DNA of 64,000 bases. It comes from an uncultured Candidatus Saccharibacteria bacterium (lineage in GTDB: Bacteria; Patescibacteriota; Dojkabacteria; B142; OLB20). Where the stretch lies: the NCBI GenBank assembly GCA_964562165.1, contig CAZLRZ010000001.1:1349-65348 (forward strand). Reading direction: 5' to 3'. Shown here piece by piece: positions 3,473-28,814 of the stretch. Each line of letters opens with the position of its first letter. Position 1 is the first letter of the stretch. The notes beneath the pieces are model-generated. The model was given only the letters and a program-made list of their open reading frames with translations, was not told where the DNA came from and did not search any database. The position numbers were made by a program, and so were the translations under genes.

Positions 3473-4171
3473 ATGTTTTTGCCCTCATTTGATCCAATTT
3501 ACATCCTTTTCGCTTTACCTGCTCTCGTTTTAGGATTTATCGCTACTATATATTTAAATTATATAACTAAGAAGTTCAATACAATTGAAACCAAACGCAA
3601 ATTAAATGGTTTAGAAATAGCCCAAGTAATTGGGAAAAGTGAAGGAATAAAATTCCAAATCAATTTATTTCCGACCCTTCTGAGTGAGTCTTACGATCCA
3701 ACGACTCAAACTTTAAACTTATCAGTTGAAAGCGCACAAAACAGAACTATCACAACTACTGCTATAACTGCTCATGAACTTGGACATATTATTCAACACC
3801 AAAAAGATAGTTTGTTATTTAAAATCAGAACAACTATAGTTCCTCTTGTTAGTTTTGGTACAAATATTGGATATTTTCTATTAATTATAGGTTTAGTTTT
3901 GGAATTCTCAAGCCTAGCATGGCTTGGTATAATTTTCTTTTCTTTAGCTACAATTTTTGCACTTATTACTGTTCCACTTGAATTTGACGCTAGCGAAAAG
4001 GCAATTAGGGTTTTAGAAAAGAACCAAATTATTTTTCCTTCAGAAAAATCGGGTGCAAAAAAGGTATTATTTGCAGCTGCATTAACCTATGTCGCAGGAC
4101 TATTTCAGTCAATCGGACAACTCCTTTACTTTATTTTCCGCATACAGGGGTTTTCAAGGAGTAAAGATTAA
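3473..4171 (+). CDS. Membrane zinc metallopeptidase, YugP/Zn_peptidase_2-like
   Basis: HExxH within TAHELGHIIQHQ. N-terminal TM plus C-terminal TM segments. 232 aa is typical for this family. Confidence 0.55.
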   Translation: MFLPSFDPIYILFALPALVLGFIATIYLNYITKKFNTIETKRKLNGLEIAQVIGKSEGIKFQINLFPTLLSESYDPTTQTLNLSVESAQNRTITTTAITAHELGHIIQHQKDSLLFKIRTTIVPLVSFGTNIGYFLLIIGLVLEFSSLAWLGIIFFSLATIFALITVPLEFDASEKAIRVLEKNQIIFPSEKSGAKKVLFAAALTYVAGLFQSIGQLLYFIFRIQGFSRSKD

Positions 4172-4485
4172 CCAATCAATAAGCCAGATTCTGTATCCTC
4201 CAATTAGTTTTGGATTGAGATAGTAATTTATCTATGCCTAGAAATATTCTAGTTGCTCTAAAGTAAGGGTTACCCAGCATTTCAACTTTACAGTTGAAAC
4301 CGGTGGTCTTTTACACCACCTTTTCACAATCTCCAAATCAATTAAGATTTGGGATTTTGCTTTCTGTGGCCCTGTTCTATAAGCTCACACCTATCCATGT
4401 TTCCATGGTACTTTTTGCTAAATTGAATTAGCTTAGAGTCCGGACTTTCCTCCCCAAATTACTCCGGGGCTACCATCTTGATTAG
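4172..4485 (-). ncRNA. rnpB: RNase P RNA (bacterial type A-like, reduced to ~314 nt)
   Basis: The minus strand reads CCCCGGAGUAAUUUGGGG (P3 hairpin) followed by AGGAAAGUCCGGACUC (the universal P4 5' strand). Further matches are ACAGAAAGCAAAAUCCC, GGUGGUGUAAAAGACCACC, CUGGGUAAC, UAGAUAAAUUACUAUC and the 3' ACAGAAUCUGGCUUAUUGAUU, which pairs with the 5' AAUCAAGAU (P1). The 327-nt interval holds no ORF. Confidence 0.85.
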
Positions 4486-4499
4486 TTGGGATTATTATA

Positions 4500-5072
4500 C
4501 TAGAAATCGACTACTTTCGTAAATGTATACGATTCGTCCTCAAAAAGAATAGTTGCATTTAAACTGTAGCTACCTTTTTCGAAATATTCTTGAAGACCAC
4601 TTCTGTTATTAATATCTTTTGCTTTTTCAATAAAAGAATAATTTACAGAGCTATCATCCATTTTTACAAACGACCAATAAATTTGGAATTCTGAACCTGT
4701 TTCGCCCCATACTACACCTTCAACACTTGGCGTTATTTTAAAATCTACATAAGAATGATCCCCATCTACCAATAAAACTTGCGTATATATTTCAGCATTT
4801 ACTGTCCTTTTGGCTTGTATATTAAAAACCTCTTGTTGGTTAACTGCTAAGACTGCAAATACAACGCCGGCACCTACGACAAACAATCCTAATAATGCAT
4901 AAAGTGATTTCCCTAGAAATCCCGTGGCTGTTTTGTTTTGATTTTCCATGTTTAACTTTCTATTTTTAAAATGAAAAAATACAATAGCTAGTATTACTAA
5001 GATTAATAATACCAAAGCTATAAAAAATAAGCTATTCAAATTTATTGATATTTGCTGTTGAAAATAATCCAT
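4500..5072 (-). CDS. Membrane protein (2 N-terminal TM segments plus an extracytoplasmic domain), last gene of the VirB4-containing operon
   Basis: 190 aa with hydrophobic segments at ~15-35 and ~55-78. Lies 16 nt downstream of the VirB4 ATPase ORF. Confidence 0.45.
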   Translation of the reverse strand: MDYFQQQISINLNSLFFIALVLLILVILAIVFFHFKNRKLNMENQNKTATGFLGKSLYALLGLFVVGAGVVFAVLAVNQQEVFNIQAKRTVNAEIYTQVLLVDGDHSYVDFKITPSVEGVVWGETGSEFQIYWSFVKMDDSSVNYSFIEKAKDINNRSGLQEYFEKGSYSLNATILFEDESYTFTKVVDF

Positions 5073-5088
5073 AATCCTTTAAACTCTT

Positions 5089-7104
5089 TTATGTTGTTAA
5101 ATTCGTTTTTATCACACTTTTTTGGGGCTGAACATCTTTTACTCCCGAAATCTCCTCCTTATCTTTACTTTCCATTGCCAAAATTTCTCTAAGATTAGTT
5201 GTTATTAAGTTATGTTCGTTTTCGCTTGCTAATACTTGTATTGCAACATGATTATAATCGGCAAAGAATAAGCCTTCACCAATACCCGCTGAAAGTAGGT
5301 AATCCTTTTCTCCATCTGATAAATAAAAGACTTTTTGAATTTGATCAACTGCAGCGGCATTTTGCTTTAACAATAATTGAATTGACGAGTTGTTAACTAC
5401 GGCCTTTCCGTAATCGGATGTTAAAAAGTCATTAACATCTTGTGTGATTGTTGTTACTCCTAAGCCGTATTTCCTTGATCTTTTTACAATAGAATAGACA
5501 AAACGAGCCGCATCAGGATATTGCATCATCCACCAAGCCTCATCAATAATTAGAATACGTTGTCGCTTATCCTTTTTAACTAAAGTCCAGATATAGTCTA
5601 ACATCACATACATTGCTACAGGTCTGAGTTCATCTGACAAATCTCTAATACTGAAGGCTGTAAAGGTATTATTTATTTTTACATTCGTAGCCTGGTCAAA
5701 AACACCTGCAGCGCTACCTTTAATAAATCTTTCGATTTTACTGGCTAGTAGATGGGCTTCGTCTTCGGCCATTGCATTAAGGATTTTATACAAATCTTCT
5801 AATAGTGGTGGAGGTCTTCGTTGAGTGGATGGATCAGGAGTAATCCCCTTTTCTTTATATGTCAAAATCAAGGCCCTATCAAGAATAGCAGTTTCTATTG
5901 GGCTTATTGTGCCCCCGACCATAATTCTAATTAGGCCTTGTAAAAATAGGATCTTAAATCTCAATTCATCTTCATCCTTTTCGAAAATACCTGATAGTTC
6001 AAATGGATTTAGTTTAGCCCCGGAATCTTGAGAGAATGTAATATATTCCCCGCCAATAGCATTTGTGAGTTTTTCATATTCTTTTTCAGGATCGATAATC
6101 ATAACGTGGGTTCCAAGCATCAAACTACGCATTGCTTCTAGTTTTACAAAATAACTTTTTCCGGCTCCAGAGGTTGCGAATATTACCATATTAGGGTTAG
6201 GCATTTGGAACCTATCAAAAATGATCAAACTTTTATTGTGCTTATTTATTCCATACATTATGCCGTCATCCATTGTAAGTTCCGAGGATACAAATGGGAA
6301 CGTTGTCGCTAATGAGGTTGTGTCCATATTCCTATTAAGATAGATTTTGTCATATCCCAAAGGAAGCGTGGAAATAAAGCCCTGCTCTTGTTGTAATGAT
6401 GCAACTTTAACAATTACACCTATTGCAGAAAGAGTTGATTCAACATTTCTTGAAATTTCTTCAAGTTCTTTAAGGTTAGTTGAACGAATAGTTACATATA
6501 GGGCAAAGTGGAAGAACTTCTGATTGCCCGAGGCGATCTGATCTTGGAGTTCTTCAGCTGAACGCAATGCGACTTTAACATTTGGGTCTGGTAGCTTGCC
6601 TGATTCTAGGTCAATATTAATAGTCGCTTGGAATTCAGTGATTTTTCTCTTTAACCTTTGTAATACAAGGCCCGAATCTGTTGGATAATAAAAAGTCGAA
6701 ATTGTAATAGGTTTCTCAAAGTTTATTAGAGGAGACAGCCAATTTGCGCCCACCCAGGTTGGGAATCCTGTCGCAAAGAAAGTTCTAAAATATTTACTAC
6801 CGATTTGCATATTGTTGAAATCGATTTCGATTGCAGGTGGAGCAATAATATCTTTAACATCAACGATACCTTCTGAGAAATTTTTAATTGCGTCTTCTTC
6901 TAGTTCACTATCCGTTTTGGTTTCAGTAACCTTTACTTGTGGCTTGCCCATAACTGACTCTAGAGCCTGTTTAATTCCGGTGCTTTGTTGTGGGGCAGCC
7001 TGCGTAGACTGAGCCCCCGCCACAGCAGTATTAGACTGAGGCCCAGCTTCTTGAGTTTGTGGTTTTGAAGGTTTTCTTCCTAATAGTGCGTCTAATATAT
7101 TCAT
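5089..7104 (-). CDS. VirB4/TrbE/CagE-family type IV secretion ATPase, C-terminal ATPase part
   Basis: Walker A FATSGAGKSYF and Walker B ILIIDEAWWMM (DEAW is characteristic of VirB4). 671 aa. Its start overlaps the upstream stop in a TAATG. Confidence 0.6.
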   Translation of the reverse strand: MNILDALLGRKPSKPQTQEAGPQSNTAVAGAQSTQAAPQQSTGIKQALESVMGKPQVKVTETKTDSELEEDAIKNFSEGIVDVKDIIAPPAIEIDFNNMQIGSKYFRTFFATGFPTWVGANWLSPLINFEKPITISTFYYPTDSGLVLQRLKRKITEFQATINIDLESGKLPDPNVKVALRSAEELQDQIASGNQKFFHFALYVTIRSTNLKELEEISRNVESTLSAIGVIVKVASLQQEQGFISTLPLGYDKIYLNRNMDTTSLATTFPFVSSELTMDDGIMYGINKHNKSLIIFDRFQMPNPNMVIFATSGAGKSYFVKLEAMRSLMLGTHVMIIDPEKEYEKLTNAIGGEYITFSQDSGAKLNPFELSGIFEKDEDELRFKILFLQGLIRIMVGGTISPIETAILDRALILTYKEKGITPDPSTQRRPPPLLEDLYKILNAMAEDEAHLLASKIERFIKGSAAGVFDQATNVKINNTFTAFSIRDLSDELRPVAMYVMLDYIWTLVKKDKRQRILIIDEAWWMMQYPDAARFVYSIVKRSRKYGLGVTTITQDVNDFLTSDYGKAVVNNSSIQLLLKQNAAAVDQIQKVFYLSDGEKDYLLSAGIGEGLFFADYNHVAIQVLASENEHNLITTNLREILAMESKDKEEISGVKDVQPQKSVIKTNLTT

Positions 7105-7769
7105 TATTTACTTGATGTATATTGTGTAGTTTTAAGTTGTAATTTCGAAACCCCTAATTTATCAGGATCGTACATAGAATAATAAAGCCTGATAAGCCTA
7201 TCATTATCTAATTGGAATGCATTTAGCCCAATATTTTTAAATTGTTTTATAAAATTCTCTCTTTTTGGGAATAATCTTGGCTTTACTTCATCTAGCATTG
7301 AATTTATGTTTATGATCCTTTCTTTTTTGCCAAAGAACTGTTTAACTCCACTCGTTTTCTGAACTGTGCCTCCACTTTCTGGGATTACAATATAGAAGGT
7401 TTTGTCTAGGATATCTTTATTGGCAGTTAGATTCTGAATAAATTGCATATAAATATCAATTTGCCTTTTTAGGGCATCAGAAATTTGCTTTTCCCTATAT
7501 ACCTTTAGTCTGTCGATATATCCACTAATATCAGTTCTTTCGGTCTTAATTACTATTTGAAAAGGGAAGTCCAAGGAATTCAAAATTGCAGCAAAGCTCA
7601 TAATCTTCATGTCTTGTTCTTTTTCTGACAACAAATCGAAGTTTAAAGCATTTACCTCAAGCACCATTGAAATCATTCCGTTTTTCAAAATGACCAAATC
7701 ATCGCGAATATCTTCTATTGCAAGATGCTGTTGAGTGCTAGGACTTGTTGATGGACCGAATAATCCCAT
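7104..7769 (-). CDS. VirB4-family N-terminal domain (CagE_TrbE_VirB-like) encoded as a separate ORF
   Basis: 221 aa. IEDIRDDLVILKNGMISMVLEVNALNFDLLSEKEQDMKIMSFAAILNSLDFPFQIVIKTER resembles the VirB4 N-domain consensus (…ddgvl.tkdGsl…v.g.d.e…e.e…). Together with the next ORF it totals ~892 aa, which is VirB4-sized. Confidence 0.45.
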   Translation of the reverse strand: MGLFGPSTSPSTQQHLAIEDIRDDLVILKNGMISMVLEVNALNFDLLSEKEQDMKIMSFAAILNSLDFPFQIVIKTERTDISGYIDRLKVYREKQISDALKRQIDIYMQFIQNLTANKDILDKTFYIVIPESGGTVQKTSGVKQFFGKKERIININSMLDEVKPRLFPKRENFIKQFKNIGLNAFQLDNDRLIRLYYSMYDPDKLGVSKLQLKTTQYTSSK

Positions 7770-8776
7770 TAATTTATAGCTTTTATAACTAAATCTAATA
7801 ATTTCCCTTCTTCTATATTAACGCTTATGCGATCAAAGTTGAAGTTTGGTTTTGATATGTCTAAGTAATAATCGCCACTTGGCAATTGATTGATTAATTC
7901 AAACCGTCCATCCGCATTGCTGTTTAACGACCTCACCAATTTGCCAGACAAATCAATAATATCAATTTTCGCAGATTTCACAGGTTGATTGAATGCATCA
8001 ACAACAATTCCTGTTAAAAATAGCTTAATATTATTATTCTTTACTACTGCAGCAGTAGGATTTGAAGTGTTAAAATCCACCGGCCTATTTACCCTACTTG
8101 TCATTGGTTTAAAAGATACTGCATAATTTGAGCCCTCGTATAATTTTTCGCCCTTGAAATCCTGCGTGATTGAATCGGCAATGGTCTCGGGCTTTTTGTA
8201 CATAGTGTCGTTTTGTGGTGGAGTGTTTTCTGCCACCTGAGCAGTTCTTTGTGGCTTTTCGCCTTGGATTTCCGGGACTTGATTAAACAAGAAATCAAAA
8301 TGTTCGTTTATTTTGCTGAGATTGTCATCCTCAAATTTGTCTAGTTTTTCTTCTTCTACAGATAGTTTTTCAAGGGGTTGATCAGGAATGTTAGCAACAC
8401 GCATTCGTGATAAAGCATTATCGATTTCTTTACCAGGAGCTTTTGTGACAGTTTCCGCTTTTGATTCCTGAAGGATTTCAGGAACTACAGGCGTTTTGCG
8501 CCATAATCTTTCTTGGGGTTCAAAAAGGCTATTTACAAAGTTTTGAAGATATATAACTGCAGACTGACCATTTATTTTGACAACTGCCAGAATAATTCCT
8601 CCGCCAATAGAAATAGCGATAAAAATATATTTTAAGATTTCGGGGATTTCCGAGTAGTAGAGCAAAAGGGCTAATATAAAGCCTACAGCCAAATATCCAA
8701 ACTGTTTTACAGTAAAGAACCCGAATAGTTTGAACTCAACATCCATAAAATTATGGGGCACTGGATGTCTTTCCAT
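7769..8776 (-). CDS. Membrane protein with 2 N-terminal TM segments and a C-terminal CarboxypepD_reg-like beta-sandwich domain
   Basis: C-terminus GIVVDAFNQPVKSAKIDIIDLSGKLVRSLNSNADGRFELINQLPSGDYYLDISKPNFNF matches the carboxypeptidase-regulatory-domain pattern. The two TM helices lie at residues ~20-70. Confidence 0.4.
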   Translation of the reverse strand: MERHPVPHNFMDVEFKLFGFFTVKQFGYLAVGFILALLLYYSEIPEILKYIFIAISIGGGIILAVVKINGQSAVIYLQNFVNSLFEPQERLWRKTPVVPEILQESKAETVTKAPGKEIDNALSRMRVANIPDQPLEKLSVEEEKLDKFEDDNLSKINEHFDFLFNQVPEIQGEKPQRTAQVAENTPPQNDTMYKKPETIADSITQDFKGEKLYEGSNYAVSFKPMTSRVNRPVDFNTSNPTAAVVKNNNIKLFLTGIVVDAFNQPVKSAKIDIIDLSGKLVRSLNSNADGRFELINQLPSGDYYLDISKPNFNFDRISVNIEEGKLLDLVIKAIN

Positions 8777-8796
8777 TGAATTTAAAAAATTTTAAC

Positions 8797-9264
8797 TTAT
8801 TTAATATCAACAATCACATATTCATTTTCGCCTGCTGGCGTTGCGAATTGAAAAACTTGGTCTTTCTTTTTCCCAACAATTGCCATGCCTAGTGGGGCTT
8901 CAACTGAAATTTTACCGTTTGTTGGATCAGCTTCACTTGGGCCGACTAATTCAAAAGTTGATTTCGAATTGGTTGTTTTGTTTAATACAACGACAGTCTT
9001 GCCAATTGAGGCATTTGAACTGTTCTTGTTTTCAACGATTATTACAGCGTTTTTTATCATATCGTCTAATTCGACGATCTTTTTTTCGTTAAATTCTTTT
9101 TCATCCATTGCAGCTTTGTATGCCGCATTTTCTGAAAGATCTCCCTGCTCTCTAGCAGTTTCAATTTCGTCTGCAATCTTTTCCCGGAGTTTAGTTAAAC
9201 GCTCTTCAAGCTCTTTTTTTAAGTCAACTAAGCCTTCTTTTGTAATTTGAATTTTAGTATCCAT
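8797..9264 (-). CDS. greA: Transcription elongation factor GreA
   Basis: 155 aa. N-terminal coiled coil with the acidic tip DLSENAAYKAA. C-terminal FKBP-like domain (…GKTVVVLN…FELVGPSEADP…ISVEAPLGMAIVGKK). Confidence 0.85.
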   Translation of the reverse strand: MDTKIQITKEGLVDLKKELEERLTKLREKIADEIETAREQGDLSENAAYKAAMDEKEFNEKKIVELDDMIKNAVIIVENKNSSNASIGKTVVVLNKTTNSKSTFELVGPSEADPTNGKISVEAPLGMAIVGKKKDQVFQFATPAGENEYVIVDIK

Positions 9265-12200
9265 TATCGGTTAATTTTAAAATTAAAAGTTTTTGAGTTT
9301 ACAAACTGACCTTTGAATAAATATCCATTTGTTTGATTAATTGAGTTTTCAGTTATAGGAACCACATGATCCAGTGTATCTTCAAACAAAAACTCTAAAT
9401 CATAATTGATTAAGGTACCGGAAATGGAATTTATCTTGAAAAGATAATTATAGCTTGAATCGGTAGTTTTTTCAAAAACTCCAGTTTTATAATTTAACCC
9501 ATATTTTAAGTCGTCATCGGGAAGGACTATAGCGCATATCTTTTGAAGGCTCAGAACATCAAAGGCTTGAGAATAATTTTCGGTTGCTGTCTCATTTATT
9601 TCAAGTTCGGCTATGCTACTTGGCATACAAAAATATGTATTCGCAATTCCATCGGCATTAAATTTTACTTTAAAACTTTTTACCGTAGATAAATCCTTTT
9701 TAACTGTAATATTACCTGAAAACTCAATTTCGCTAAGGCTATTAAATTTGTTTGTTGATCCATCGGAATTCATACCGATATATATTTGATCTTTTACAGA
9801 ACTTTCAGGCACTAAACTCATTATAAATCTCTGGAAAATTGGGTCGTTACTAAAAAGCTTTATATCTTTTGAATTAACAGCCGATTCAATTGATTTCCCA
9901 ACAGACTTATCTTTAAAGACATTATTTACTTTGTTTTCCAACAAATTTGAACTGTACGAAATCACAAGATTGCTTCGCTGTTGATCTGTAGCATCAGAAG
10001 AAAGTAAATTATTGAATACATCAAAGAAATTATCGGAATTAAAAACCTTTTGTTTAAAATTGAGATCGTTATTTTCTCCGGTAATCATAGCAAAAGCATT
10101 TAGATTCACAATTATTCCCATATCTACATTAGTAGCCTCTTTTGCCTCGACTAATTCTTCGACTTCATCATAAAAAAGATCCATATCCGATATATAGTTT
10201 ATATCGTCAAAAACAATATTACCCTGAGTAAGTATTTTTTTGCTAACTAAGGTTATATCTTTAAATGCAGCTTGCGAAAGATTGGGGTTCGTATTTTGAA
10301 ACTCAGAAAAGTTTACAAATTTTACGGTAATAATTTTGGCATTTTGTACGCCAAATAAATAATATCCAACTAACTTTCCGCCACTAGCATAAAATCTTTG
10401 ATTGTCCTGAATTAAAAGAAGATAGTTTTTAATTTTATCTTTTCCGGTAATTAGATTGAGATTATTCACAGATTCAACTATTTTGCTACCCTCATTTTGA
10501 GTATCAACCACATCTTTTACTTCATCTCCAATTAGACTGACAACCCAACCCGGCATGGATTCAAGGGCAACTAAAATTTTCTTTGAATTTTCCTCCATCG
10601 CCTTATTACCTAAAGAAAGTAAGGATTTATTTGAATTCAGACTGTTCAGATCTTCTAAATAATCGGCTTTAGTGCTTGAGATTACTAATTGATCATCTAG
10701 CCTTTGGACAAATCCGGGGGAAAACTTTGTTTTGAAACTATCTAAAGGAATAAGCGACTTTGAAAAATTATCCAGACCCGAAAAATATTGTTCTAATTGC
10801 GAAATAAAGATTCGAGCATTTGCATAGTCATCGTTTTTATTAAAAATGATAAACACATACTCTAAATCTTTCAGCCTAGCTTCAATGTTATTGATATTGT
10901 CTAATATCTCATTAGTTTTAACATTAATCTCATTAAAGTTGTAAGTATCCCTCGACTTAGATATGGTGGTTATGTTTTGCCTTAAAAAGAAAACTTCTTT
11001 GGATAAATTTAATACAGGCGACAAGAATATAAAATAAACAATTAAAAAGGTTATTATCCCAACCATCCATAGGCCAAATTCCCTTAATGTTAGGTTCTTA
11101 AATATATTTACTTTTTGTTTTATTCTTATAAACAAATCATTTAGCCAATTATCGAACCTTTCCAAAGGTGTTCTATCCGGTTTTTTTTGAAGCGCCTCTC
11201 TTAGATTGTTATTTGCTAAAATAATACTACCCTTTCTGGCTCTTTCTTGGTTTTTTCGCTCTGCTATTAGTCTTGCTAAAGCTCCTTCGCTATTAAGGTT
11301 TGAGGTGTTAACTTCGGGGATGGTTGGATCGTCTTCTTTTGAAGCAATAAAGAAGAAATCAAGGAATCCTTTCTTCTGTTCTTTTCGATTCTTTGAGCCG
11401 GAAATTGGAATTAGTTCTTTTTCAAGTGAAGACACATTTCCATTTACTTCGCTCAGCCTTGCTTTAATAAAATCTATCGTTTGCGATAAAGCTCTATCAA
11501 ATGAAATTCTCGGAGACCATCCGATAGACGTTAGATTAGTAGCCGGTTTATATAACTTGATTGGTGGCAATGTATTATCGTTCTGGTCAAATTGGATTTC
11601 TTTCGCAGAAGGAATCAGTTCTATCATCTTGTACGCAATACCTAATACAGAGATTTCTTCTTCATTTGAAAGGGTGAAAATTTGCCCTTTTGTATTCGGA
11701 GAAAATTGAGCCTTTATTATCCCGTATGCGGCGTCTAAATAATGAATATAGAAGTCCGTATCTAATCCGTCCCCTGGAATTATCAACCTTTCACCTTGTA
11801 AAGCTTGAATAATTAATTTAACTATAAATGAGTCCAGATTAATTTCCATCCCCCTACCAAGTAATGTCCCTAAGCGAACTATCCTGGTATTTATTCCCAC
11901 TTTCTCTTGATATTCTTTTACTAAACTTTCGGAATATCTTTGGATTTCGAGTTCGGAATAAACCGAATATTTTTCAGCAGTCTGCAATTCATAATTTAAA
12001 TCAATAACTTTATTCCCAACAATTGTTTGATGAGCCTTAATAGAAGTGGTTAACAAAAATTTGGCATCAAATTTTGCCGTAAGATCAAGCACAGTGTCTA
12101 AATAATTTGATGCCTGTAAAAATTCTTGCGTAGAAATTTTTTGGCTATAATCGGCATACTGATGATCCAGATAAAACACATAATCGAGCCTTCTCAAATC

Positions 12201-12428
12201 GCTTTGCAAAGTGCTTATACCACTATAATCCATCAGGATTAGATTTTGATAGGAATCAATTAATGGTAAATATTTTTCAACTTCCCGGCTGCCTCGATCA
12301 ACAATAATTACAAACCCTCCTTGTTCTAAAAGGGATTTAGCAAGCTCTATACCCAATAAGTCTTGCCCCCTAACAATAATTGAAGTTGGGAATTTTACTG
12401 CATTTTTTAATTGATTGGCAGTGACCAT
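9264..12428 (-). CDS. 1054-aa membrane protein: cytoplasmic degenerate SDR/epimerase-like N-domain, one TM, large extracytoplasmic region
   Basis: Residues ~15-300 resemble NAD-dependent epimerases (IIVRGQDLLGIELAKSLLEQGGFVIIVD; FYIHYLDAAYGIIKA) but lack GxxGxxG and YxxxK. A TM segment sits at ~445-470 (LWMVGIITFLIVYFIFLSPVL). Confidence 0.45.
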   Translation of the reverse strand: MVTANQLKNAVKFPTSIIVRGQDLLGIELAKSLLEQGGFVIIVDRGSREVEKYLPLIDSYQNLILMDYSGISTLQSDLRRLDYVFYLDHQYADYSQKISTQEFLQASNYLDTVLDLTAKFDAKFLLTTSIKAHQTIVGNKVIDLNYELQTAEKYSVYSELEIQRYSESLVKEYQEKVGINTRIVRLGTLLGRGMEINLDSFIVKLIIQALQGERLIIPGDGLDTDFYIHYLDAAYGIIKAQFSPNTKGQIFTLSNEEEISVLGIAYKMIELIPSAKEIQFDQNDNTLPPIKLYKPATNLTSIGWSPRISFDRALSQTIDFIKARLSEVNGNVSSLEKELIPISGSKNRKEQKKGFLDFFFIASKEDDPTIPEVNTSNLNSEGALARLIAERKNQERARKGSIILANNNLREALQKKPDRTPLERFDNWLNDLFIRIKQKVNIFKNLTLREFGLWMVGIITFLIVYFIFLSPVLNLSKEVFFLRQNITTISKSRDTYNFNEINVKTNEILDNINNIEARLKDLEYVFIIFNKNDDYANARIFISQLEQYFSGLDNFSKSLIPLDSFKTKFSPGFVQRLDDQLVISSTKADYLEDLNSLNSNKSLLSLGNKAMEENSKKILVALESMPGWVVSLIGDEVKDVVDTQNEGSKIVESVNNLNLITGKDKIKNYLLLIQDNQRFYASGGKLVGYYLFGVQNAKIITVKFVNFSEFQNTNPNLSQAAFKDITLVSKKILTQGNIVFDDINYISDMDLFYDEVEELVEAKEATNVDMGIIVNLNAFAMITGENNDLNFKQKVFNSDNFFDVFNNLLSSDATDQQRSNLVISYSSNLLENKVNNVFKDKSVGKSIESAVNSKDIKLFSNDPIFQRFIMSLVPESSVKDQIYIGMNSDGSTNKFNSLSEIEFSGNITVKKDLSTVKSFKVKFNADGIANTYFCMPSSIAELEINETATENYSQAFDVLSLQKICAIVLPDDDLKYGLNYKTGVFEKTTDSSYNYLFKINSISGTLINYDLEFLFEDTLDHVVPITENSINQTNGYLFKGQFVNSKTFNFKINR

Positions 12429-13111
12429 TAAATAGTTTTAATTATTTTAACCGGTTGCAAAAACAAATTTACCTCAAGATTAATTGTAAGATCCTTTAAT
12501 TTATCCCGACTTTCTTGATCTTCGGGCAGGATCATAAACTCTAAAGAATCATATCCGTCTTTTTCAAATCGGATTTTATGCTGTCTACTAATATCTAATT
12601 CTAATTCATTTAAAGGAGTAGTTCCAATTTGTTCATCATCTATGAAAACGTTTACTTCTATAGGAGCAGAGATTACATTCAAAATTGGATTCTCATTTTT
12701 CTTAAAGTTTTTAGAAGCGTATAAAATATGCCCCTCCGTAAAAGCCTCTGATGGGCCTAAATCGTAAGCCATAACAACTTCAACTCCCGAAATAAAATTT
12801 ATTTCTTTGTTTAATTCAAAATATACATTGCCCGCTTCGGACTTTCTTTGGAGTTTGATCAAATGCATTCCTTCTTTAATGGTGTTAATTTCTGCAAAAG
12901 ATTCATCATCCACAACATTGCCCTCAAGTTTTTCATCAACATAAATATCAATACTGCCTGAAAGGGATTTAACCTTTAATGTTGAATAAGTACTATCCTT
13001 ATCAATCCCAATTAAAGATAAAAAGGAAAAGTCCCAACTATTCCATGGGGACCAAATTCCAATAAGAACTAATACTATTAACAGTAAAACTATTCTGCCG
13101 AGGTTTTTCAA
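12428..13111 (-). CDS. Membrane-anchored protein with a PEGA-like domain (TTG start)
   Basis: N-terminal TM. C-terminal VNVFIDDEQIGTTPLN fits the PEGA motif. The start codon is TTG at 13109-13111. First gene of the operon. Confidence 0.35.
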   Translation of the reverse strand: MKNLGRIVLLLIVLVLIGIWSPWNSWDFSFLSLIGIDKDSTYSTLKVKSLSGSIDIYVDEKLEGNVVDDESFAEINTIKEGMHLIKLQRKSEAGNVYFELNKEINFISGVEVVMAYDLGPSEAFTEGHILYASKNFKKNENPILNVISAPIEVNVFIDDEQIGTTPLNELELDISRQHKIRFEKDGYDSLEFMILPEDQESRDKLKDLTINLEVNLFLQPVKIIKTI

Positions 13112-13289
13112 TTTTTGATAACTATTTTCAAAAATTATAGCAATAAACCATGATAACCTCTACTTTTATTTTCAATGAAATGATAAAATAATCATAAGCG
13201 ATTAAGGATTTGGTGTAAGCCTTAAAAATTTAGTGATTACAACCAAATATTCTCTTGAGAGTCTTAAAATTTCAAGCTTTTGAAGATTT

Positions 13290-13400
13290 TAAGGAATAAA
13301 GGTGGCACCACCCAAGATTTTTATAAATTTAAGGGCCCTTTTAGATTGTATTTTATAATCTAAAGCGGCTCTTTTTTTATTTATATTTTTTACCAAATAC
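13290..13400 (+). promoter_or_regulatory. Candidate aspS leader: T-box-like GGUGGCACC element plus a hairpin/U-run attenuator
   Basis: AAAGGTGGCACCACCC resembles the T-box core (AGGGUGGNACCGCG). UGGC would pair with the GCCA 3' end of tRNA-Asp or tRNA-Asn. Hairpin TTTAGATT...AATCTAAA, then GCGGCTCTTTTTTT, ends 20 nt before the ATG. Confidence 0.2.
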
Positions 13401-13403
13401 CAA

Positions 13404-15191
13404 ATGCAACGAATCTTATCAAATGAATTGAAAAACCAAATCGGCAACGAAGTTATGCTAGAAGGCTGGCTTCATAACCTAAGGACAATGGGCAAATTGG
13501 CCTTTCTAATTTTGCGTGATAGAACTGGTTTGAGCCAAATTGTTTTAGATTCTGTTGATGAAATCAAAAAGCTCGACAATCTATACACCGGTTCGGTTCT
13601 AAGAATAGTTGGGAACGCAGTTTTATCTGAGAAATCTCAATATGGTGTTGAAATCCAAAATTCAAAAATCGAAGTAATGCAACCTGTAAAATACCCTAGC
13701 CCAGTTGATATTTCAAAAAATGATTTGAATGTGGAGTTTGATACTTTGCTTGAAAATCGCGTAGTAACTTTAAGACACCCAAAGCAATCTGCGATTTTCA
13801 AAGTTGCAGGTATTGCCGAAAAAGTAATGCGTGACTTTTATAATAAAAATGAGTTCACACAAATTAATTCACCAAAAATGATTGCCTTCCCAACCGAAGG
13901 CGGTGCTGAGGTTTTTGAGGTCAACTACTTTGATAAAAAGGCGTATATGGCTCAAAGCCCTCAGTTTTATAAACAGATGATGGTCGGTGTTTTTGAAAAA
14001 GTATATGAAATCGGTAGAGCCTACCGTGCAGAAAAAAGTAATACCAGCAGGCATCTTTCGGAGATCCTAATGTTGGATATGGAAATGGGATTTATAAATT
14101 CCTTTGAGGACGTTCTAAATACTAGTGAATCCTTTATAAAATACGTTTGTGAAAATACTTGGAACGAAGCGGCCCCTTTACTTGAAGGCCTTGGAGCAAA
14201 AAAGCCAATAATTTCGGAAAAGCTTCCAAGAATTAGTGTAAAAGATTTACACGAATTAATGAAAAAAGAAACCGGCGAAGATCATACTAGCGAACTCGAC
14301 GTTGCTCCTTCTGAAGAAAAATTTATAAGCGAATATTCACAAAAGAACTGGAATAGCGAAGCGCTATTTATTGTTGACTTCCCTTGGTCCGATGCAAAAT
14401 TTTATCATCATCAAAGCGAAACCAACCCAGAAAATGCTGATCGAGCCGACTTAATTTTTAGAGGCGTTGAACTTGCTACAATTACAAGGCGTGAAGTCAA
14501 TTACGAAAAGCTAGTCTCACAAATCCAAGCAAAAGGAATGGATTCCAATCACCCAGGCCTAGCGCAATATCTTGAAGCCTTTAAATTTGGAATGCCCGAA
14601 GAAGGCGGCTTTGGTTTAGGTATTGCAAGATTCGTTCAAAAAATGATAGGCCTCGATAATGTAAAAGAAGCCGAACTATTTCCATCGGATCCTAAGCTAA
14701 TCGGTGGAGTTCGAATTGCTCCTAAGGTGTTTTTTGGCAAAGAGTTAAATTCTGAAATATTATCCCAATTAACAAAAGGTAAAATTACCTATGAAAAGGT
14801 AACTCATGAACCCGCAAAAACATCTGAGGAATCGGCCATTCAAAGAAAAACCAATCTTGATGAAGGTGTAAAAGCAATAATTCTTCGAGGTAAAAGAACA
14901 GGAAAAAACATTATGGTTTGTATTCCTGCTGATCAAAAACTAAATATGGACATATTATCCAGTTTTGAAAGTGAAAAGTTTGAGTTTGAAAACCCTCAAA
15001 TAATTAAAGATAAGTTCGGCTTGGAACTCGGATCAATTCCTCCATTTGGCAACTTGCTAGGAATGACTACGTATTTCTCAAATGATATAGAACAAAAAGC
15101 ATTATCAGCTTTCAATGATGGACTTACAACAGAGTCCATCAAGATGCAGCCAGCAGATTTAATTAAATTAATAAATCCAATATTAGTTTGA
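13404..15191 (+). CDS. aspS: Aspartyl-(or asparaginyl-)tRNA synthetase, class IIb archaeal/eukaryotic-type core, fused to a C-terminal YbaK/ProX-like deacylase domain
   Basis: Motif 2 AYRAEKSNTSRHLSEI and motif 3 GGFGLGIARFV. Core of ~440 aa. C-terminal ~150 aa (KAIILRGKRTGKNIMVCIPADQKLNMDILSS…LGSIPPFGNLLGMTTYFSNDI) aligns by eye to E. coli YbaK (K.LL…K.LAVAV.P….LDLKK….TGY.VGGISPLG). Confidence 0.8.
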   Translation: MQRILSNELKNQIGNEVMLEGWLHNLRTMGKLAFLILRDRTGLSQIVLDSVDEIKKLDNLYTGSVLRIVGNAVLSEKSQYGVEIQNSKIEVMQPVKYPSPVDISKNDLNVEFDTLLENRVVTLRHPKQSAIFKVAGIAEKVMRDFYNKNEFTQINSPKMIAFPTEGGAEVFEVNYFDKKAYMAQSPQFYKQMMVGVFEKVYEIGRAYRAEKSNTSRHLSEILMLDMEMGFINSFEDVLNTSESFIKYVCENTWNEAAPLLEGLGAKKPIISEKLPRISVKDLHELMKKETGEDHTSELDVAPSEEKFISEYSQKNWNSEALFIVDFPWSDAKFYHHQSETNPENADRADLIFRGVELATITRREVNYEKLVSQIQAKGMDSNHPGLAQYLEAFKFGMPEEGGFGLGIARFVQKMIGLDNVKEAELFPSDPKLIGGVRIAPKVFFGKELNSEILSQLTKGKITYEKVTHEPAKTSEESAIQRKTNLDEGVKAIILRGKRTGKNIMVCIPADQKLNMDILSSFESEKFEFENPQIIKDKFGLELGSIPPFGNLLGMTTYFSNDIEQKALSAFNDGLTTESIKMQPADLIKLINPILV

Positions 15192-15937
15192 AAATGATGT
15201 TAGAAATAAAAAATCTAAGTTGCGAAATTAATTCAAAAGAAATTTTGTCTGACATTTCTCTACAAATTCAAAAGGGTGAAGTTCATGTTATTATGGGACC
15301 AAACGGATCCGGCAAGTCCACACTTGCTAAAGCCATAATTGCTGATCCTGAATGTATTATCAAAACCGGGAAAATCTTTTTTGAAAACATTGATATTACA
15401 TCTCAAGACATCTCATCTAGAGCCAAAAACGGAATCTTTATGGCTTTTCAAAATCCGGTGGAAGTCCCCGGTTTAAATTTCCGCAACTATGCAAGACTAA
15501 TCTATAACAATCTAAAGCCAAAGGAACAAAAACTCCCTGTTTTTAAATTTAGAGAACATTTATTGAGCTTAGCAAAATCTTTAAATATTCCAGAGGCTTT
15601 ACTCGAAAGGAACTTAAACGAAGGCCTTTCTGGAGGCGAAAAAAAGAAGCTGGAGATACTTCAAATGGCATTATTAAGCCCCAAATTAGTGATTCTTGAT
15701 GAAACCGATTCCGGCCTAGATATCGAGGCAATAAAAACGATTTTCAAGTATATTAATGAACTCAAGGTTTCTAACCCCAGTCTTACCATTTTGATAATCA
15801 CCCATTATCATAAGATTTTTGAGGATTTAACTCCTAATAAAATCCATATTATGATGAATGGGAAAATCGTAAAAACCTCCGATAAAAGCATTTTACAAAC
15901 AATAGAAAAATTTGGATATGAAAAATTCAGAAGCTGA
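15188..15937 (+). CDS. sufC: Fe-S cluster assembly ATPase SufC
   Basis: GPNGSGKSTLAKAI Walker A, LSGGEKKKLEILQM signature. 249 aa. Lies upstream of sufB. Confidence 0.85.
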   Translation: MKMMLEIKNLSCEINSKEILSDISLQIQKGEVHVIMGPNGSGKSTLAKAIIADPECIIKTGKIFFENIDITSQDISSRAKNGIFMAFQNPVEVPGLNFRNYARLIYNNLKPKEQKLPVFKFREHLLSLAKSLNIPEALLERNLNEGLSGGEKKKLEILQMALLSPKLVILDETDSGLDIEAIKTIFKYINELKVSNPSLTILIITHYHKIFEDLTPNKIHIMMNGKIVKTSDKSILQTIEKFGYEKFRS

Positions 15938-17348
15938 AAATTGCGATGTAAAAACCCTTGTTTCAACGAATGCTTATGACGAGAAGTACGGCTTCCACAC
16001 TGATAATACAAACACCATCGAATTTAAAAAAGGCCTCGACCTTGAAACAATTAAAAGTATTTCAAAGATAAAAAATGAGGACAAATGGATGTTAAATTTT
16101 CGACTAAAAGCATACAAAGAATTTTTAAAACACAAAATGCCCTCTTTTGGGCCCGATCTAACTCACATTAATTTTGATGAGATAAAATATTTTGTCCAAG
16201 CCTCAGCGAAATCAAACAAGAGCTGGGATTCAGTTCCCGTAGAAATTCAAGAGACTTTTGATAAGCTGGGTATTCCGGAAGTAGAAAAGAAATATCTCGC
16301 AGGCATTGCTACACAATATGAATCCGAAATCATCTATAACAATCTTAAAGAAAAGTGGACAAAACAAGGAATAATATTTTTAGATATTTCAGAAGGCTAC
16401 AAAAAATACCCCGATCTATTTACGAAATATTTTAGTTCAATTGTGCCAATTAATGACAACAAGTTTGCCGCATTAAATTCTGCTGTTTTTAGTGGAGGAA
16501 CTTTTATCTATATCCCTAAACATATTAAGGTTAGGATTCCACTCCAAACCTACTTTAGAATCAACACTGAAAGTATGGGCCAATTTGAAAGGACCTTGAT
16601 CATTGCTGACGAAGGCAGTGAAGTCCATTACATTGAAGGATGCACAGCCCCGACATATAGCAAAGATTCCTTGCACGCTGCGGTAGTCGAAGTTATTGTG
16701 TTAGATAAAGCCAGAGTCAGATATACAACCATTCAAAACTGGTCAAAAAACGTATTGAACCTTGTTACAAAAAGAGCTTCTGTCCACGAAAAAGGCATTA
16801 TGGAATGGGTTGACTGCAACTTAGGCTCAAGAATTACTATGAAATACCCAGCTGTAATCTTAAAAGGAGATGATTCCCATGGCGAAATTTTATCAATCGC
16901 CTTAGCAAACAAAGACCAAATAATTGATGCCGGTGGCAAGGCAATTCATATAGGCAAAAATACCTCCAGTATTATTAATTCCAAATCGATCTGCATTAAT
17001 GGTGGCAGAAGCTCTTTTAGAGGCTTTGTAAAATCCGAGACTACCGCACAAAACGCAAAATCGAAGGTCAATTGCGAAGCCTTAATACTAGACAACAAAT
17101 CTCAAACTGACACCTACCCTACAAATTTGATTTTGAATAAAACAACGCAAGTTGCCCACGAAGCCTCAGTTAGCAAGCTCAACACAAAACAAATGAACTA
17201 CTTAATGTCGCGCGGCCTAAATATTGCCCAGGCTTCATCTTTAATTGTTTCTGGTTTTATTGAACCAATAGTAAAAGAATTACCAATGGAATATGCAGCA
17301 GAACTTAATACTTTAATTAATTTAAGTATGGAAGGAAGCGTAGGATAA
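15912..17348 (+). CDS. sufB: Fe-S cluster assembly protein SufB
   Basis: 478 aa. ...HYIEGCTAPTYSKDSLHAAVVEV... and a C-terminal ...NYLMSRGL... typical of SufB. Confidence 0.85.
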   Translation: MDMKNSEAENCDVKTLVSTNAYDEKYGFHTDNTNTIEFKKGLDLETIKSISKIKNEDKWMLNFRLKAYKEFLKHKMPSFGPDLTHINFDEIKYFVQASAKSNKSWDSVPVEIQETFDKLGIPEVEKKYLAGIATQYESEIIYNNLKEKWTKQGIIFLDISEGYKKYPDLFTKYFSSIVPINDNKFAALNSAVFSGGTFIYIPKHIKVRIPLQTYFRINTESMGQFERTLIIADEGSEVHYIEGCTAPTYSKDSLHAAVVEVIVLDKARVRYTTIQNWSKNVLNLVTKRASVHEKGIMEWVDCNLGSRITMKYPAVILKGDDSHGEILSIALANKDQIIDAGGKAIHIGKNTSSIINSKSICINGGRSSFRGFVKSETTAQNAKSKVNCEALILDNKSQTDTYPTNLILNKTTQVAHEASVSKLNTKQMNYLMSRGLNIAQASSLIVSGFIEPIVKELPMEYAAELNTLINLSMEGSVG

Positions 17349-17801
17349 ATGGAAGACATCTCATTAGACTTAACAAAAAACATTCAAGAAATCGAAGTTA
17401 ACAAAGACTCTCTATTCAGGGCTGTTTTCCAAAGCAACCTAAACGGCAAATTAAAAAGGGTCATTACCATCACTCATACAAAGAAAAACATTGAATCAGA
17501 ATTTAGAATAAAATTCATTGTCAATTCAAAAGATCCCGTAGAGTTCATCCCTACCATTATTATAAAAAAAGGCGCAACCGGAGTAAAAAGCAAACTAAAA
17601 ATTGAAGTCCTAAATTTAACAAACAACCCCCATATACTAATCAGTCCTAATATGGAAATCCTCGATAACGACGTCGAAGCCTCTCACAGTTTGGCCATAC
17701 GACAAGTCGATTCAAATGAGTTAAAATATTTAATGAGCCGAGGCTTAGAAAAATCTCAAAGCACAAGATTATTAATTCAAGCTTTTATCAACGATTTATG
17801 A
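17349..17801 (+). CDS. sufD: Minimal SufD-like protein (C-terminal beta-helix and dimerisation region only)
   Basis: 150 aa. ISPNMEILDNDVEASHSLAIRQVDSNELKYLMSRGL matches the SufB/SufD C-terminal consensus (kP.LEI.aDDVkCsHGAT.G.ld.e.LFYL.SRGi). Confidence 0.5.
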   Translation: MEDISLDLTKNIQEIEVNKDSLFRAVFQSNLNGKLKRVITITHTKKNIESEFRIKFIVNSKDPVEFIPTIIIKKGATGVKSKLKIEVLNLTNNPHILISPNMEILDNDVEASHSLAIRQVDSNELKYLMSRGLEKSQSTRLLIQAFINDL

Positions 17802-19006
17802 ACAAATCCGACTTCCCAATTTTCAATCAATTTCCAAAACTAATTTATTTGGATAATGCTGCAACCACCCAGAAGCCCTCTTGTGTTATCGACTCCTACA
17901 AAGAGTTTTACGAAAAGCACAACGCAAATGTACATAGGGGCATATACAAATTAAGCGAGGATGCCACGGCTTTGTACGAAGCCTCTAGACAAACCGTTGC
18001 TGAATTCATCGGGGCAAAATCCGATGAGATCGTTTTCACATCAGGCACGACAATGTCTATTAATCTTTTGGCCCAATATCATTTTAGGAATGCACTAGAA
18101 GCTGGCTCAACTATCCTATTAAGCGATTTAGAACATCATAGCAATATCCTCCCTTGGCAATCCATTGCAAAAGAACAGTCACTTAATTTGGATTATATTC
18201 ATCTTAATTCAAACTTGGAATTTGATCTAAATCAAATCGAGGCCACTTTAAAAACACAAAAAGTTGACCTAATATCAATTTCATTAATGAGTAATGTCAC
18301 GGGATACACACCCCCCATTAAACAAATTAAAGAATTGATAAATAAACATTCGCCCCAAACCCTACTATTACTTGATGCAGCACAAGCTATTTCACATATG
18401 AGCATCGATGTTAACGAACTTGATGCGGACTTTATTGTTTTTTCTGCCCATAAGGCATATGGCCCAACCGGATTAGGTGTAATTTGGGGCAAACAAAACC
18501 ATTTAAAAGAAATTCAATCACTTTTCCAAGGTGGCGGAATTGTTGAAACCGTAACTAGAGATAGCGCGACTTTTATTGAAGGTCCACAAAGGTTTGAAGC
18601 AGGCACTCCTCCTATTGCCGAAGCTGCAGTTTTCGCCAAAGCCCTTAAATACTTAAAATCAATTGGCCTAGAGGAAATCAAAAATCACGAAATGCACCTT
18701 GCAGAATCCCTACACAAAAGACTTAAAGAGATTCCCGAAATCAAGCTACTTGTTGAGAACTTCGACCCAAGCCATTTTGGACCCATAATTAGCTTTACAC
18801 ACGCAAAACTACACCCTCACGATTTAGCTCAGATCCTGGATTATAAAGACATTGCAGTAAGAGCGGGGCATCATTGCACACAGATTCTACATAGAGAGGT
18901 TTTACATATACCTTCAAGCGCAAGAGTTAGTTTGGCTTTATATAACGAGGAAGCTGATATCGAAGCCATAATAGACGCCCTTAAGAACGTGTCAATAAAT
19001 CGTTAA
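17798..19006 (+). CDS. sufS: Cysteine desulfurase SufS (class V aminotransferase)
   Basis: PLP-Lys motif SAHKAYGPTGLGV. Catalytic Cys loop RAGHHCTQ. 402 aa. Confidence 0.85.
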   Translation: MNKSDFPIFNQFPKLIYLDNAATTQKPSCVIDSYKEFYEKHNANVHRGIYKLSEDATALYEASRQTVAEFIGAKSDEIVFTSGTTMSINLLAQYHFRNALEAGSTILLSDLEHHSNILPWQSIAKEQSLNLDYIHLNSNLEFDLNQIEATLKTQKVDLISISLMSNVTGYTPPIKQIKELINKHSPQTLLLLDAAQAISHMSIDVNELDADFIVFSAHKAYGPTGLGVIWGKQNHLKEIQSLFQGGGIVETVTRDSATFIEGPQRFEAGTPPIAEAAVFAKALKYLKSIGLEEIKNHEMHLAESLHKRLKEIPEIKLLVENFDPSHFGPIISFTHAKLHPHDLAQILDYKDIAVRAGHHCTQILHREVLHIPSSARVSLALYNEEADIEAIIDALKNVSINR

Positions 19007-19490
19007 TATCAAAGGGTTTTAAGGTTAAATTCATAATCAAATTCTTTTGACCAAAATATCCTTCTGGCCTTGTCCCTATTAATTTAAAACCATGCTTTTC
19101 GTAGAAGGGCCTAGCTCTATCATAGGTATAGAGCTCAATTAGATGACCTTTTATTTGCTTAATATAGTCAATATATTTTTGAAGCAAAACACCTCCAAGG
19201 CCTTTACTTCTATATTCAGGATAAACTCCTACCCAGCTTATAAAGCCGACACCACCATAAGTGTGATCCCCAATTAAAAACCCAATAACGTTTTTCGATT
19301 CATCAACTGCAACAAAAACTTTTCGAAAATTCCTATCAATCCAAAGTCGGAAGTTCTGTAATGTATAGTCCGTCAACAAGAAATGTTCCGAAAGCACAGG
19401 AGGGAACTGACCATAACCCTCATTCATAAGCTTTGAAAAGCACCTATAAAATGAGTCTAGATTATTAGTCCCAAGTTCTTCTATTACCAT
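18981..19490 (-). CDS. GNAT-family N-acetyltransferase
   Basis: Motif A YRSKGLGGVLL. 169 aa. Confidence 0.6.
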   Translation of the reverse strand: MVIEELGTNNLDSFYRCFSKLMNEGYGQFPPVLSEHFLLTDYTLQNFRLWIDRNFRKVFVAVDESKNVIGFLIGDHTYGGVGFISWVGVYPEYRSKGLGGVLLQKYIDYIKQIKGHLIELYTYDRARPFYEKHGFKLIGTRPEGYFGQKNLIMNLTLKPFDINDLLTRS

Positions 19491-21783: not shown

Positions 21784-21849
21784 AAAGAAATGAATTATTT
21801 TGTTATTCTATCAGCAATAATGAGTTTATTCAAACCAGCGGGAAAGTAT

Positions 21850-23901: not shown

Positions 23902-23919
23902 TTTGAAGATTTTAAATTT

Positions 23920-24501: not shown

Positions 24502-24566
24502 TAAATGAAATGTTAATAAATTAACTAATAATTAAATTATACTCTAGGGATTTTTTCTTAACAATA

Positions 24567-25841: not shown

Positions 25842-25886
25842 GTGCTAATTCTACCAAAAACCCTTTAAATATTATATATTATTTAA

Positions 25887-27083: not shown

Positions 27084-27097
27084 GATTATTAAGATCT

Positions 27098-28675: not shown

Positions 28676-28759
28676 ACGTAAGAAAGAAAGAATTTATTTA
28701 TTAAATTATTATGCCATGATATCTAAAAATCTGTCCAATTTAATTGGCAACAAATTTTT

Positions 28760-28793
28760 AGACAAAAAAAATCCCAAATTTCTTTGGGATTTT
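28760..28793 (-). terminator. Rho-independent terminator at the end of the ribosomal super-operon (after rpsI)
   Basis: AAATCCCAAA-GAAA-TTTGGGATTT hairpin followed by an 8-U run on the minus strand. Confidence 0.6.
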
Positions 28794-28814
28794 AAAATTC
28801 TTTTTACTACAATT

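Follow-up and report, generated by a model that had tools for sequence, protein, structure and literature searches.

We analysed a window of 64,000 nucleotides (nt), the whole stretch taken from contig CAZLRZ010000001.1. The window is part of the chromosome of a member of Dojkabacteria (WS6), a class of Patescibacteria, and a search of GTDB genomes returned Dojkabacteria/WS6 metagenome-assembled genomes as its closest relatives. The locus studied here is a run of seven minus-strand open reading frames (ORFs) at 4500-13111 that includes a gene for a VirB4-family ATPase of a type IV secretion system (T4SS) (Table 1). An earlier reading of this DNA, made without database searches (the sequence-only reading), had described the seven as close-packed, and the window sequence confirmed all of them in place. 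Four of the six junctions are 1-nt TAATG overlaps, and the other two are gaps of 20 nt (the largest) and 16 nt. No Shine-Dalgarno-like sequence was found upstream of any of the seven start codons, where the DNA is A/T-rich, and the GC content of the locus matches that of its flanks. The RNase P RNA gene, rnpB, begins on the same strand 11 nt past the last stop codon and forms the conserved downstream end of the block; this feature had been overlooked. The domains proposed earlier (PEGA, GreA, CarboxypepD_reg and VirB4) all scored above the cut-offs in Pfam and NCBIfam profile searches.

Table 1. Features of the VirB4 locus, listed from high to low coordinates (aa, amino acids; TM, transmembrane; SDR, short-chain dehydrogenase/reductase; FN3, fibronectin type III; Ig, immunoglobulin).
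Feature	Coordinates	Strand	Description
Extended -10-like element TGCTATAAT	13134..13142	-	read from the sequence; ~22 nt upstream of the TTG start of the PEGA gene
PEGA protein	12428..13111	-	227 aa; TTG start; N-terminal TM anchor and PEGA domain
Pseudo-SDR/DUF4012 protein	9264..12428	-	1054 aa; bitopic membrane protein
greA	8797..9264	-	155 aa; transcript cleavage/elongation factor
Extended VirB3 homologue (PrgI)	7769..8776	-	335 aa; 2 TM
TrsD/TraD-family protein	7104..7769	-	221 aa; soluble
VirB4-family T4SS ATPase, TrsE/CD1110 (monoderm, MPF_FATA) type	5089..7104	-	671 aa
TM190	4500..5072	-	190 aa; 2 TM helices and C-terminal FN3/Ig-like sandwich
rnpB (RNase P RNA, class A)	4165..4488	-	Rfam RF00010, 149 bits (gathering score 100)

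Profile searches bore out the VirB4-family identity of the interval 5089..7769, on which the sequence-only reading had staked its proposal. The 671-aa protein matched the NCBIfam model NF045971 (conju_CD1110) with 396.1 bits (cut-off 325) over model positions 177-733 of 752. It also matched the TraG P-loop, AAA_10 and DUF87 families of Pfam and the VirB4 C-terminal domain of PDB entry 4ag5 (E 8e-45). Its translation carries intact Walker A (SGAGKS) and Walker B (IIDEAW) motifs. Identity was 29-36% to the best plasmid VirB4 proteins of Firmicutes and Actinobacteria and 45-49% to VirB4 of ABY1, and the phylogenetic placement of the window VirB4 is taken from these best hits. The first ~175 positions of a full-length VirB4 are absent from this protein, and its N-terminal ~70 aa are of low complexity.

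The N-terminal VirB4 domain is supplied in trans by the neighbouring 221-aa protein. This protein aligns to the VirB4 N-terminus (TIGR00929 positions 7-141, E 7e-6; VirB4_plasma positions 103-234, E 2e-11) and the 671-aa protein covers TIGR00929 positions 242-726, so the pair is colinear with one full-length VirB4. The stop codon of the first gene overlaps the start codon of the second by 1 nt. Membership of the 221-aa protein in the TrsD family had not been recognized before, and the homology is remote. Against the TrsD model NF041427 the protein scored 26.9 bits (E 3.6e-6), under the cut-off of 200. A family profile of 35 homologues matched TrsD of the staphylococcal plasmid pSK41 in hhalign with 95% probability (E 3.5e-8), and with 99.8% and 98.2% it matched the products of the genes immediately preceding virB4 on plasmids of Pontibacillus and B. 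cereus, respectively. Judged from these alignments, the division into an N-domain protein and a separate ATPase, which the sequence-only reading had already noted, is a genuine split rather than a frameshift, because the TrsD profiles match and pSK41 has the same TrsC-TrsD-TrsE order.

Related VirB4 stretches numbered 435 in GTDB genomes. We fetched 80 Patescibacteria loci, spanning Dojkabacteria, ABY1/Falkowbacteria and others, and the neighbourhood counts given here cover these. Genes for PrgI-like, TrsD-like and VirB4 proteins are adjacent in nearly all 80 loci, forming families of 75, 76 and 80 members.

The gene preceding trsD encodes a 335-aa protein in which the sequence-only reading had missed a PrgI domain (Pfam PF12666, aa 5-91, 29.0 bits, cut-off 27). 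The protein has a TM hairpin (segments 21-39 and 50-68), followed by a variable, low-complexity linker rich in Pro, Gln and Glu (aa ~95-250) and, at the C-terminus, by a beta-sandwich resembling CarboxypepD_reg (aa 254-329, 39.6 bits, cut-off 32.3). Pairwise hhalign comparisons of this PrgI family with Firmicutes proteins at the TrsC/PrgI position were weak (20-38%, with pSK41 TrsC at 38%), and PrgI membership therefore rests on the Pfam match. VirB3 proteins are usually 10-15 kDa in size and have short termini, both of them cytoplasmic (PMC12857230). With its linker and additional domain, the 335-aa protein falls outside this size range. By analogy, the beta-sandwich may be cytoplasmic, since VirB3 topology places both termini on that side of the membrane (PMC12857230); a positive-inside charge count for the hairpin was uninformative on topology. 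Across 16 Dojkabacteria homologues (265-582 aa in total length), the N-terminus is conserved, the linker is variable, and the C-terminal sandwich is retained in 14.

Downstream of virB4 lies the gene for a 190-aa protein, here called TM190. Its two TM helices are connected by a loop that is rich in Lys and Arg and contains an invariant GFLGK motif; on account of this loop, the C-terminal domain is predicted to face outward. That domain is a seven-stranded FN3/Ig-like sandwich, confident in the structure model. The protein had no family match, and its 195 representatives are uniform in length (~175-199 aa). From the position of its gene, TM190 is a plausible lineage-specific candidate for a T4SS accessory. 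We rejected it as a VirB8 analogue, as the model is FN3-like and not NTF2-like or VirB8-like. A relationship to the protein with one TM helix found at the same position in ABY1 loci was likewise rejected (hhalign 14%, with the hidden Markov model (HMM) match extending over the TM segment alone).

The three genes upstream of prgI are of a different kind. GreA matched PF03449 (GreA_GreB_N) and PF01272 (GreA_GreB C-terminal) with E ~1e-21 each, TIGR01462 with 150.1 bits (cut-off 139) and NF001263 with 147.7 bits (cut-off 145). The greA gene has a housekeeping function and belongs to the operon without being a secretion component. Its presence had been called unexpected, and the housekeeping superoperon around it explains it without a role in secretion. 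The earlier statement that every partner of the ATPase is membrane-bound or surface-exposed does not apply to GreA, which is cytoplasmic, and it applies only in part to the 1054-aa protein, which has a cytoplasmic SDR-like domain of ~330 aa. The beta-sandwich of the 335-aa protein, if cytoplasmic, would be a further exception.

The architecture of the 1054-aa protein (SDR-like domain, TM helix and DUF4012 region) had gone unnoticed. Residues 1-330 adopt a fold resembling UDP-xylose synthase (UXS), a nucleotide-sugar SDR, and match the Pfam NAD-epimerase-like family PF01370. A disordered segment links this domain to a single TM helix (~aa 446-470), after which come a helical bundle, the DUF4012 alpha/beta region (aa ~667-872) and, at the C-terminus, a beta-sandwich in which two Cys residues are invariant. 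The AlphaFold model has a pLDDT (predicted local distance difference test) score of 81. For PF13196 (DUF4012), the window protein scored 25.2 bits against a cut-off of 28, and the family is recorded for most full-length homologues. In the SDR domain Tyr157 is invariant, while the Lys position of the YxxxK motif is occupied by Glu or Gln, and RGxDxLG replaces the NAD-binding GxxGxxG of the glycine loop in each of the 42 homologues aligned. These substitutions suggest that the domain is probably a conserved, membrane-tethered pseudo-enzyme that binds nucleotide sugars rather than an epimerase. A word-indexed search returned 158 matches, all of ~1,000 aa with the same architecture, and every named one came from Dojkabacteria. 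DUF4012 lies in an exopolysaccharide (EPS) locus of Bifidobacterium and is enriched in the candidate phyla radiation (CPR) and in Gram-positives/monoderms irrespective of T4SS. The PEGA protein (Pfam PF08308, aa 143-196, 25.5 bits, cut-off 20.8) has its TM segment at aa 4-22, and its gene is always paired with the DUF4012 gene (14/14 loci). We interpret the 1054-aa protein as probably part of a module for envelope polysaccharide or the cell wall, in which the PEGA protein would be its partner.

The order PEGA-DUF4012-greA-prgI-trsD-virB4-TM190 recurs in about 14-20 Dojkabacteria loci, in which VirB4 is 62-92% and the other proteins are 17-88% identical to those of the window. The recurrence in loci this divergent indicates that the arrangement is not due to chance. 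The usual block is longer and runs rpoA-L17-L13-S9-PEGA-DUF4012-greA-prgI-trsD-virB4-TM190-rnpB. Its inner junctions are well kept: PEGA|DUF4012 in 14/14 loci, DUF4012|greA and greA|prgI in 16/17 each, prgI|trsD in 18/18, trsD|virB4 in 19/20 and virB4|TM190 in 17/20. The single exception at the greA junctions is a fragmented assembly, where tblastn still found greA. The rnpB gene occupies the same downstream position in all six Dojkabacteria loci tested. For other classes, 58 loci were searched with profile HMMs for the GreA, DUF4012 and PEGA proteins, and none had a match in the 10 kb around virB4 on either side; across the 80 loci, these three lie beside virB4 only within Dojkabacteria. The expectation of conserved neighbours around VirB4 homologues in related genomes thus held for the seven-gene order within the class and failed for GreA, DUF4012 and PEGA beyond it. 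As greA, rnpB and the ribosomal genes share the same synteny, synteny alone does not prove a single apparatus, and our preferred reading is that the T4SS core became part of a conserved block of housekeeping genes.

In the window, ORFs at ~28.8-31.2 kb have sizes and an order that fit rpoA-L17-L13-S9, their identity being deduced from these two properties. A segment of ~15.7 kb (13112-28814) separates S9 from the PEGA gene here, and it is also interposed in the nearest relative (L001). It carries genes for AspRS (aspartyl-tRNA synthetase), SufC/B/S, SecDF-like, DUF2207 and LemA, HI0933-like, major facilitator superfamily and ThyX-like proteins. This is a lineage-specific rearrangement with its breakpoint exactly at the block boundary.

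The module is not new to the literature, contrary to the suggestion that the apparatus was undescribed. Quinonero-Coronel et al. (2025) catalogued the PrgI-TrsD-VirB4 module in 3,035 Patescibacteria genomes, Dojkabacteria included (PMC12102498), and Dojkabacteria genomes are scored there as VirB4-positive. In that survey, Patescibacteria VirB4 forms a clade within monoderm MPF_FATA, with TrsD as its most abundant companion (1,664 copies adjoining virB4) and PrgI/VirB3 as a common one; relaxases are missing in most cases, and ribosomal or RNase P genes are frequent neighbours (PMC12102498). The T4SS of Southlakia epibionticum, a Saccharibacterium, is essential (Wang et al. 2023, PMC10633639) and includes TrsD and PrgI homologues (PMC12102498). 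Patescibacteria T4SS are also covered in a T4SS review (PMC12857230). The window shares with these systems (including S. epibionticum SEML1_0006-0019) a chromosomal location, adjacent PrgI/VirB3, TrsD and VirB4 genes without a relaxase, a ribosomal/RNase P neighbourhood and a VirB4 nearest to the monoderm MPF_FATA type. A VirB4-centred, relaxase-less and non-canonical T4SS module, as the sequence-only reading proposed, is therefore present and conserved in related genomes. The window differs from these systems in its VirB3 homologue, which a linker and a C-terminal beta-sandwich bring to 2-5 times the normal size, and in the surroundings of virB4, where we found no VirB6, no VirB2-like pilin array, no peptidoglycan hydrolase and no VirB8-like gene. 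In addition, Dojkabacteria have a class-specific 2-TM/FN3 protein after virB4 and greA, DUF4012 and PEGA genes fixed upstream.

The Trs system of Staphylococcus pSK41/pGO1 has the same order, TrsC-TrsD-TrsE, with closely similar sizes (TrsD 227 versus 221 aa, TrsE 672 versus 671 aa), and the counterpart of pSK41 TrsC (135 aa) is the PrgI domain within the 335-aa protein. However, pSK41 is a plasmid that also encodes TrsF, TrsG (CHAP hydrolase), TrsK (a type IV coupling protein, T4CP), TrsL (VirB6-like), a relaxase and a CagC-like pilin, none of which was found in the window. ABY1/Falkowbacteria loci (L023-L080) likewise contain adjacent genes for PrgI (~140 aa; 138-166 aa), TrsD (~226 aa) and VirB4 (~633 aa), with TrsD 24-33% identical to the window protein. 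They add a 7-TM, extended-VirB6-like protein of ~950 aa, two soluble paralogues of ~350-500 aa, a 1-TM protein of ~205 aa, radA and recG. The accessory families have no Pfam matches (for example L024:3116-6094, 6106-8759 and 11830-12453) and are followed by radA and recG. The consensus of the 1-TM protein gave the impression of a possible NTF2-like domain. No homologue of the ABY1 accessory set was found among the window proteins tested; profiles of these families (extended-VirB6-like f8, f0, f10 and f16) did not match any of nine selected window proteins. The DUF4012 protein, in turn, resembles BL105A_0406 of the Gram-positive EPS/capsular polysaccharide locus of Bifidobacterium longum in its DUF4012 region and monoderm envelope context. 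It differs from it in being fused to a catalytically degenerate UXS-like SDR domain and in having a PEGA partner, and, unlike in such Gram-positive loci, no glycosyltransferase or Wzz gene adjoins it.

We looked for the missing translocon parts across the window. The ORFs scanned had no Pfam match to a relaxase, T4CP or VirB6, and no VirB1-type hydrolase or VirB8-like subunit was detected in the block or in these ORFs. A TM scan of the whole window revealed no unassigned polytopic membrane protein. Near virB4, there was no Pfam match to VirB6 or VirB2 and no adjoining polytopic candidate; small ORFs were not screened for pilins. Two overlapping minus-strand genes at 19484-21783 encode proteins of 305 aa (6 TM) and 465 aa (TM1, a large loop and 4 TM). 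These proteins had no Pfam match at E<=0.001, and they were rejected as VirB6 candidates because their topology fits SecF/SecD and no profile matched.

We interpret the locus as the known Patescibacteria T4SS core, in a class-specific version and placed in a Dojkabacteria housekeeping block, rather than as an undescribed seven-gene machine, and assign this reading a probability of roughly 0.8. PrgI, TrsD and VirB4 would form the cytoplasmic-membrane energising core of a Patescibacteria-clade T4SS derived from monoderm MPF_FATA. By analogy to R388 and pCF10, TrsD and VirB4 would assemble as an oligomeric ATPase, the VirB3 homologue would dock it at the membrane, and the ATPase would power assembly of the translocon or transport through it. 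The remaining parts of the translocon (VirB6-like channel, pilins and T4CP) may be encoded elsewhere or be too divergent for recognition. The lack of a relaxase makes conjugative DNA an improbable cargo; effector proteins, pilus subunits or imported nucleic acid are candidates. TM190 would be a plausible lineage-specific accessory with an extracellular FN3-like domain, and the PEGA and pseudo-SDR/DUF4012 proteins would constitute a separate envelope module for polysaccharide or cell wall. The seven genes and rnpB, mostly together with rpoA-rplQ-rplM-rpsI, would be a conserved block that is probably constitutively expressed, which fits a secretion system needed by the cell at all times.

Few machines are known on which the epibiotic lifestyle depends, and the Patescibacteria T4SS is one of them. 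In Dojkabacteria, the set encoded locally is reduced to VirB3, TrsD, VirB4 and a single small accessory and forms part of a housekeeping operon. What is new here is modest and specific to the class. It consists of a longer VirB3, TM190 as a family, a constant association with greA, DUF4012, PEGA and rnpB, and the finding that VirB6, VirB8 and pilins are not found locally. The value of the locus is comparative, as a compact reference for asking which parts are core and what the TrsD/VirB4 split and the VirB3 extensions do, and no new category is proposed.

The alternative that survives best is that the PrgI-TrsD-VirB4 core is mainly an importer of DNA or other nucleic acid, like ComB of H. pylori and archaeal Ced, feeding a cell deficient in nucleotide synthesis, and not an exporter. 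Such uptake has been proposed for Saccharibacteria (PMC11665869), and it agrees with the lack of a relaxase or T4CP found nearby. The radA and recG genes that flank the module in the ABY1 relatives, as also in the published survey (PMC12102498), point the same way; however, the Dojkabacteria locus has neither competence nor recombination genes on its flanks. VirB4 matched the CedB model weakly, with 64 bits, but this is far under the cut-off of 700, and the protein fits best in the conjugative CD1110 family. The direction of transport is not readable from sequence. On balance, we consider a system mainly for uptake unlikely.

A further alternative retains more of the sequence-only reading. All seven genes, or six without greA, would encode one Dojkabacteria-specific trans-envelope apparatus in which the DUF4012, PEGA and TM190 proteins replace the cell-wall-spanning parts VirB6 and VirB8. 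Several observations favour it and weigh against a T4SS core in a housekeeping block. The gene order is strictly kept, with 1-nt overlaps between genes, and the inner junctions are steadier than the flanks: the outer junctions break more often (S9|PEGA 5/14, TM190|ZnP 10/19), and the ~15.7-kb separation of S9 from PEGA left the block intact in the window and in L001. Stable inner and breakable outer junctions are a pattern also expected from a single functional unit. With no VirB6-, VirB8- or VirB2-like gene nearby, the channel-forming parts of the core are unaccounted for, and the membrane proteins of the block are the sole local candidates for them; the DUF4012, PEGA and TM190 proteins each combine a TM anchor with a large ectodomain.

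Against a single apparatus, greA, rnpB and mostly rpoA-L17-L13-S9 are equally linked to these genes yet functionally unrelated to them, and the linkage of GreA, DUF4012 and PEGA homologues to virB4 is not seen in the 58 loci of other classes. DUF4012 occurs widely among monoderms and sits in an EPS locus, the nucleotide-sugar SDR fold at the N-terminus of the DUF4012 protein points to glycan metabolism, and TM190 is missing downstream of virB4 in 3/20 loci. We therefore regard one apparatus built from the whole set as distinctly improbable. A related proposal is that Dojkabacteria have rebuilt their T4SS, with the extended VirB3, 2-TM/FN3, DUF4012 and PEGA proteins as an envelope-spanning part that replaces VirB6, VirB8 and pilins. 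If true, this would be an architecturally distinct, minimal VirB4-driven machine, but we hold it to be a long shot. A decaying integrated conjugative element, with the split VirB4 as a frameshifted pseudogene, could account for the lack of a relaxase, T4CP, VirB6 and VirB1 and for a VirB4 in two ORFs, but is barely credible given that a TrsD|VirB4 split of the same size occurs in 76/80 loci and on functional plasmids such as pSK41, that the Walker motifs are intact and VirB4 is 62-92% identical across the class, and that the context is one of housekeeping genes with uniform GC content and without an integrase or repeats.

Promoter-like signals were also examined. The TGCTATAAT element lies in the 292-nt divergent intergenic region upstream of the PEGA gene and is a candidate promoter of the operon, as a prediction only. 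Further promoter-like sites occur before rnpB (TTTACG-18-TATAAT at 4523-4494, overlapping the TM190 stop codon) and before greA (9475-9447). Overall, the consensus promoter scan was at chance level (41 sites versus 37 +/- 6 expected), and the promoter and terminator scans hence provide no evidence for or against a single transcript.

Three other genes in the window were noted. The product of a minus-strand gene at 1954-2988 (344 aa) has a signal peptide and a high content of Thr, Ser, Ala and Asn; it had no Pfam match and may be a surface or pilin-like protein. The 525-aa protein encoded at 27098-28675 (minus strand) is about twice the usual length of ThyX, and its Thy1 (ThyX) domain is confined to the first ~220 aa. 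On the plus strand, 13404-15191 encodes a class II aspartyl/asparaginyl-type tRNA synthetase (tRNA-synt_2 and OB anticodon domain) whose C-terminal part (aa 468-589) is a YbaK-like domain for aminoacyl-tRNA editing (PF04073), an unusual fusion.

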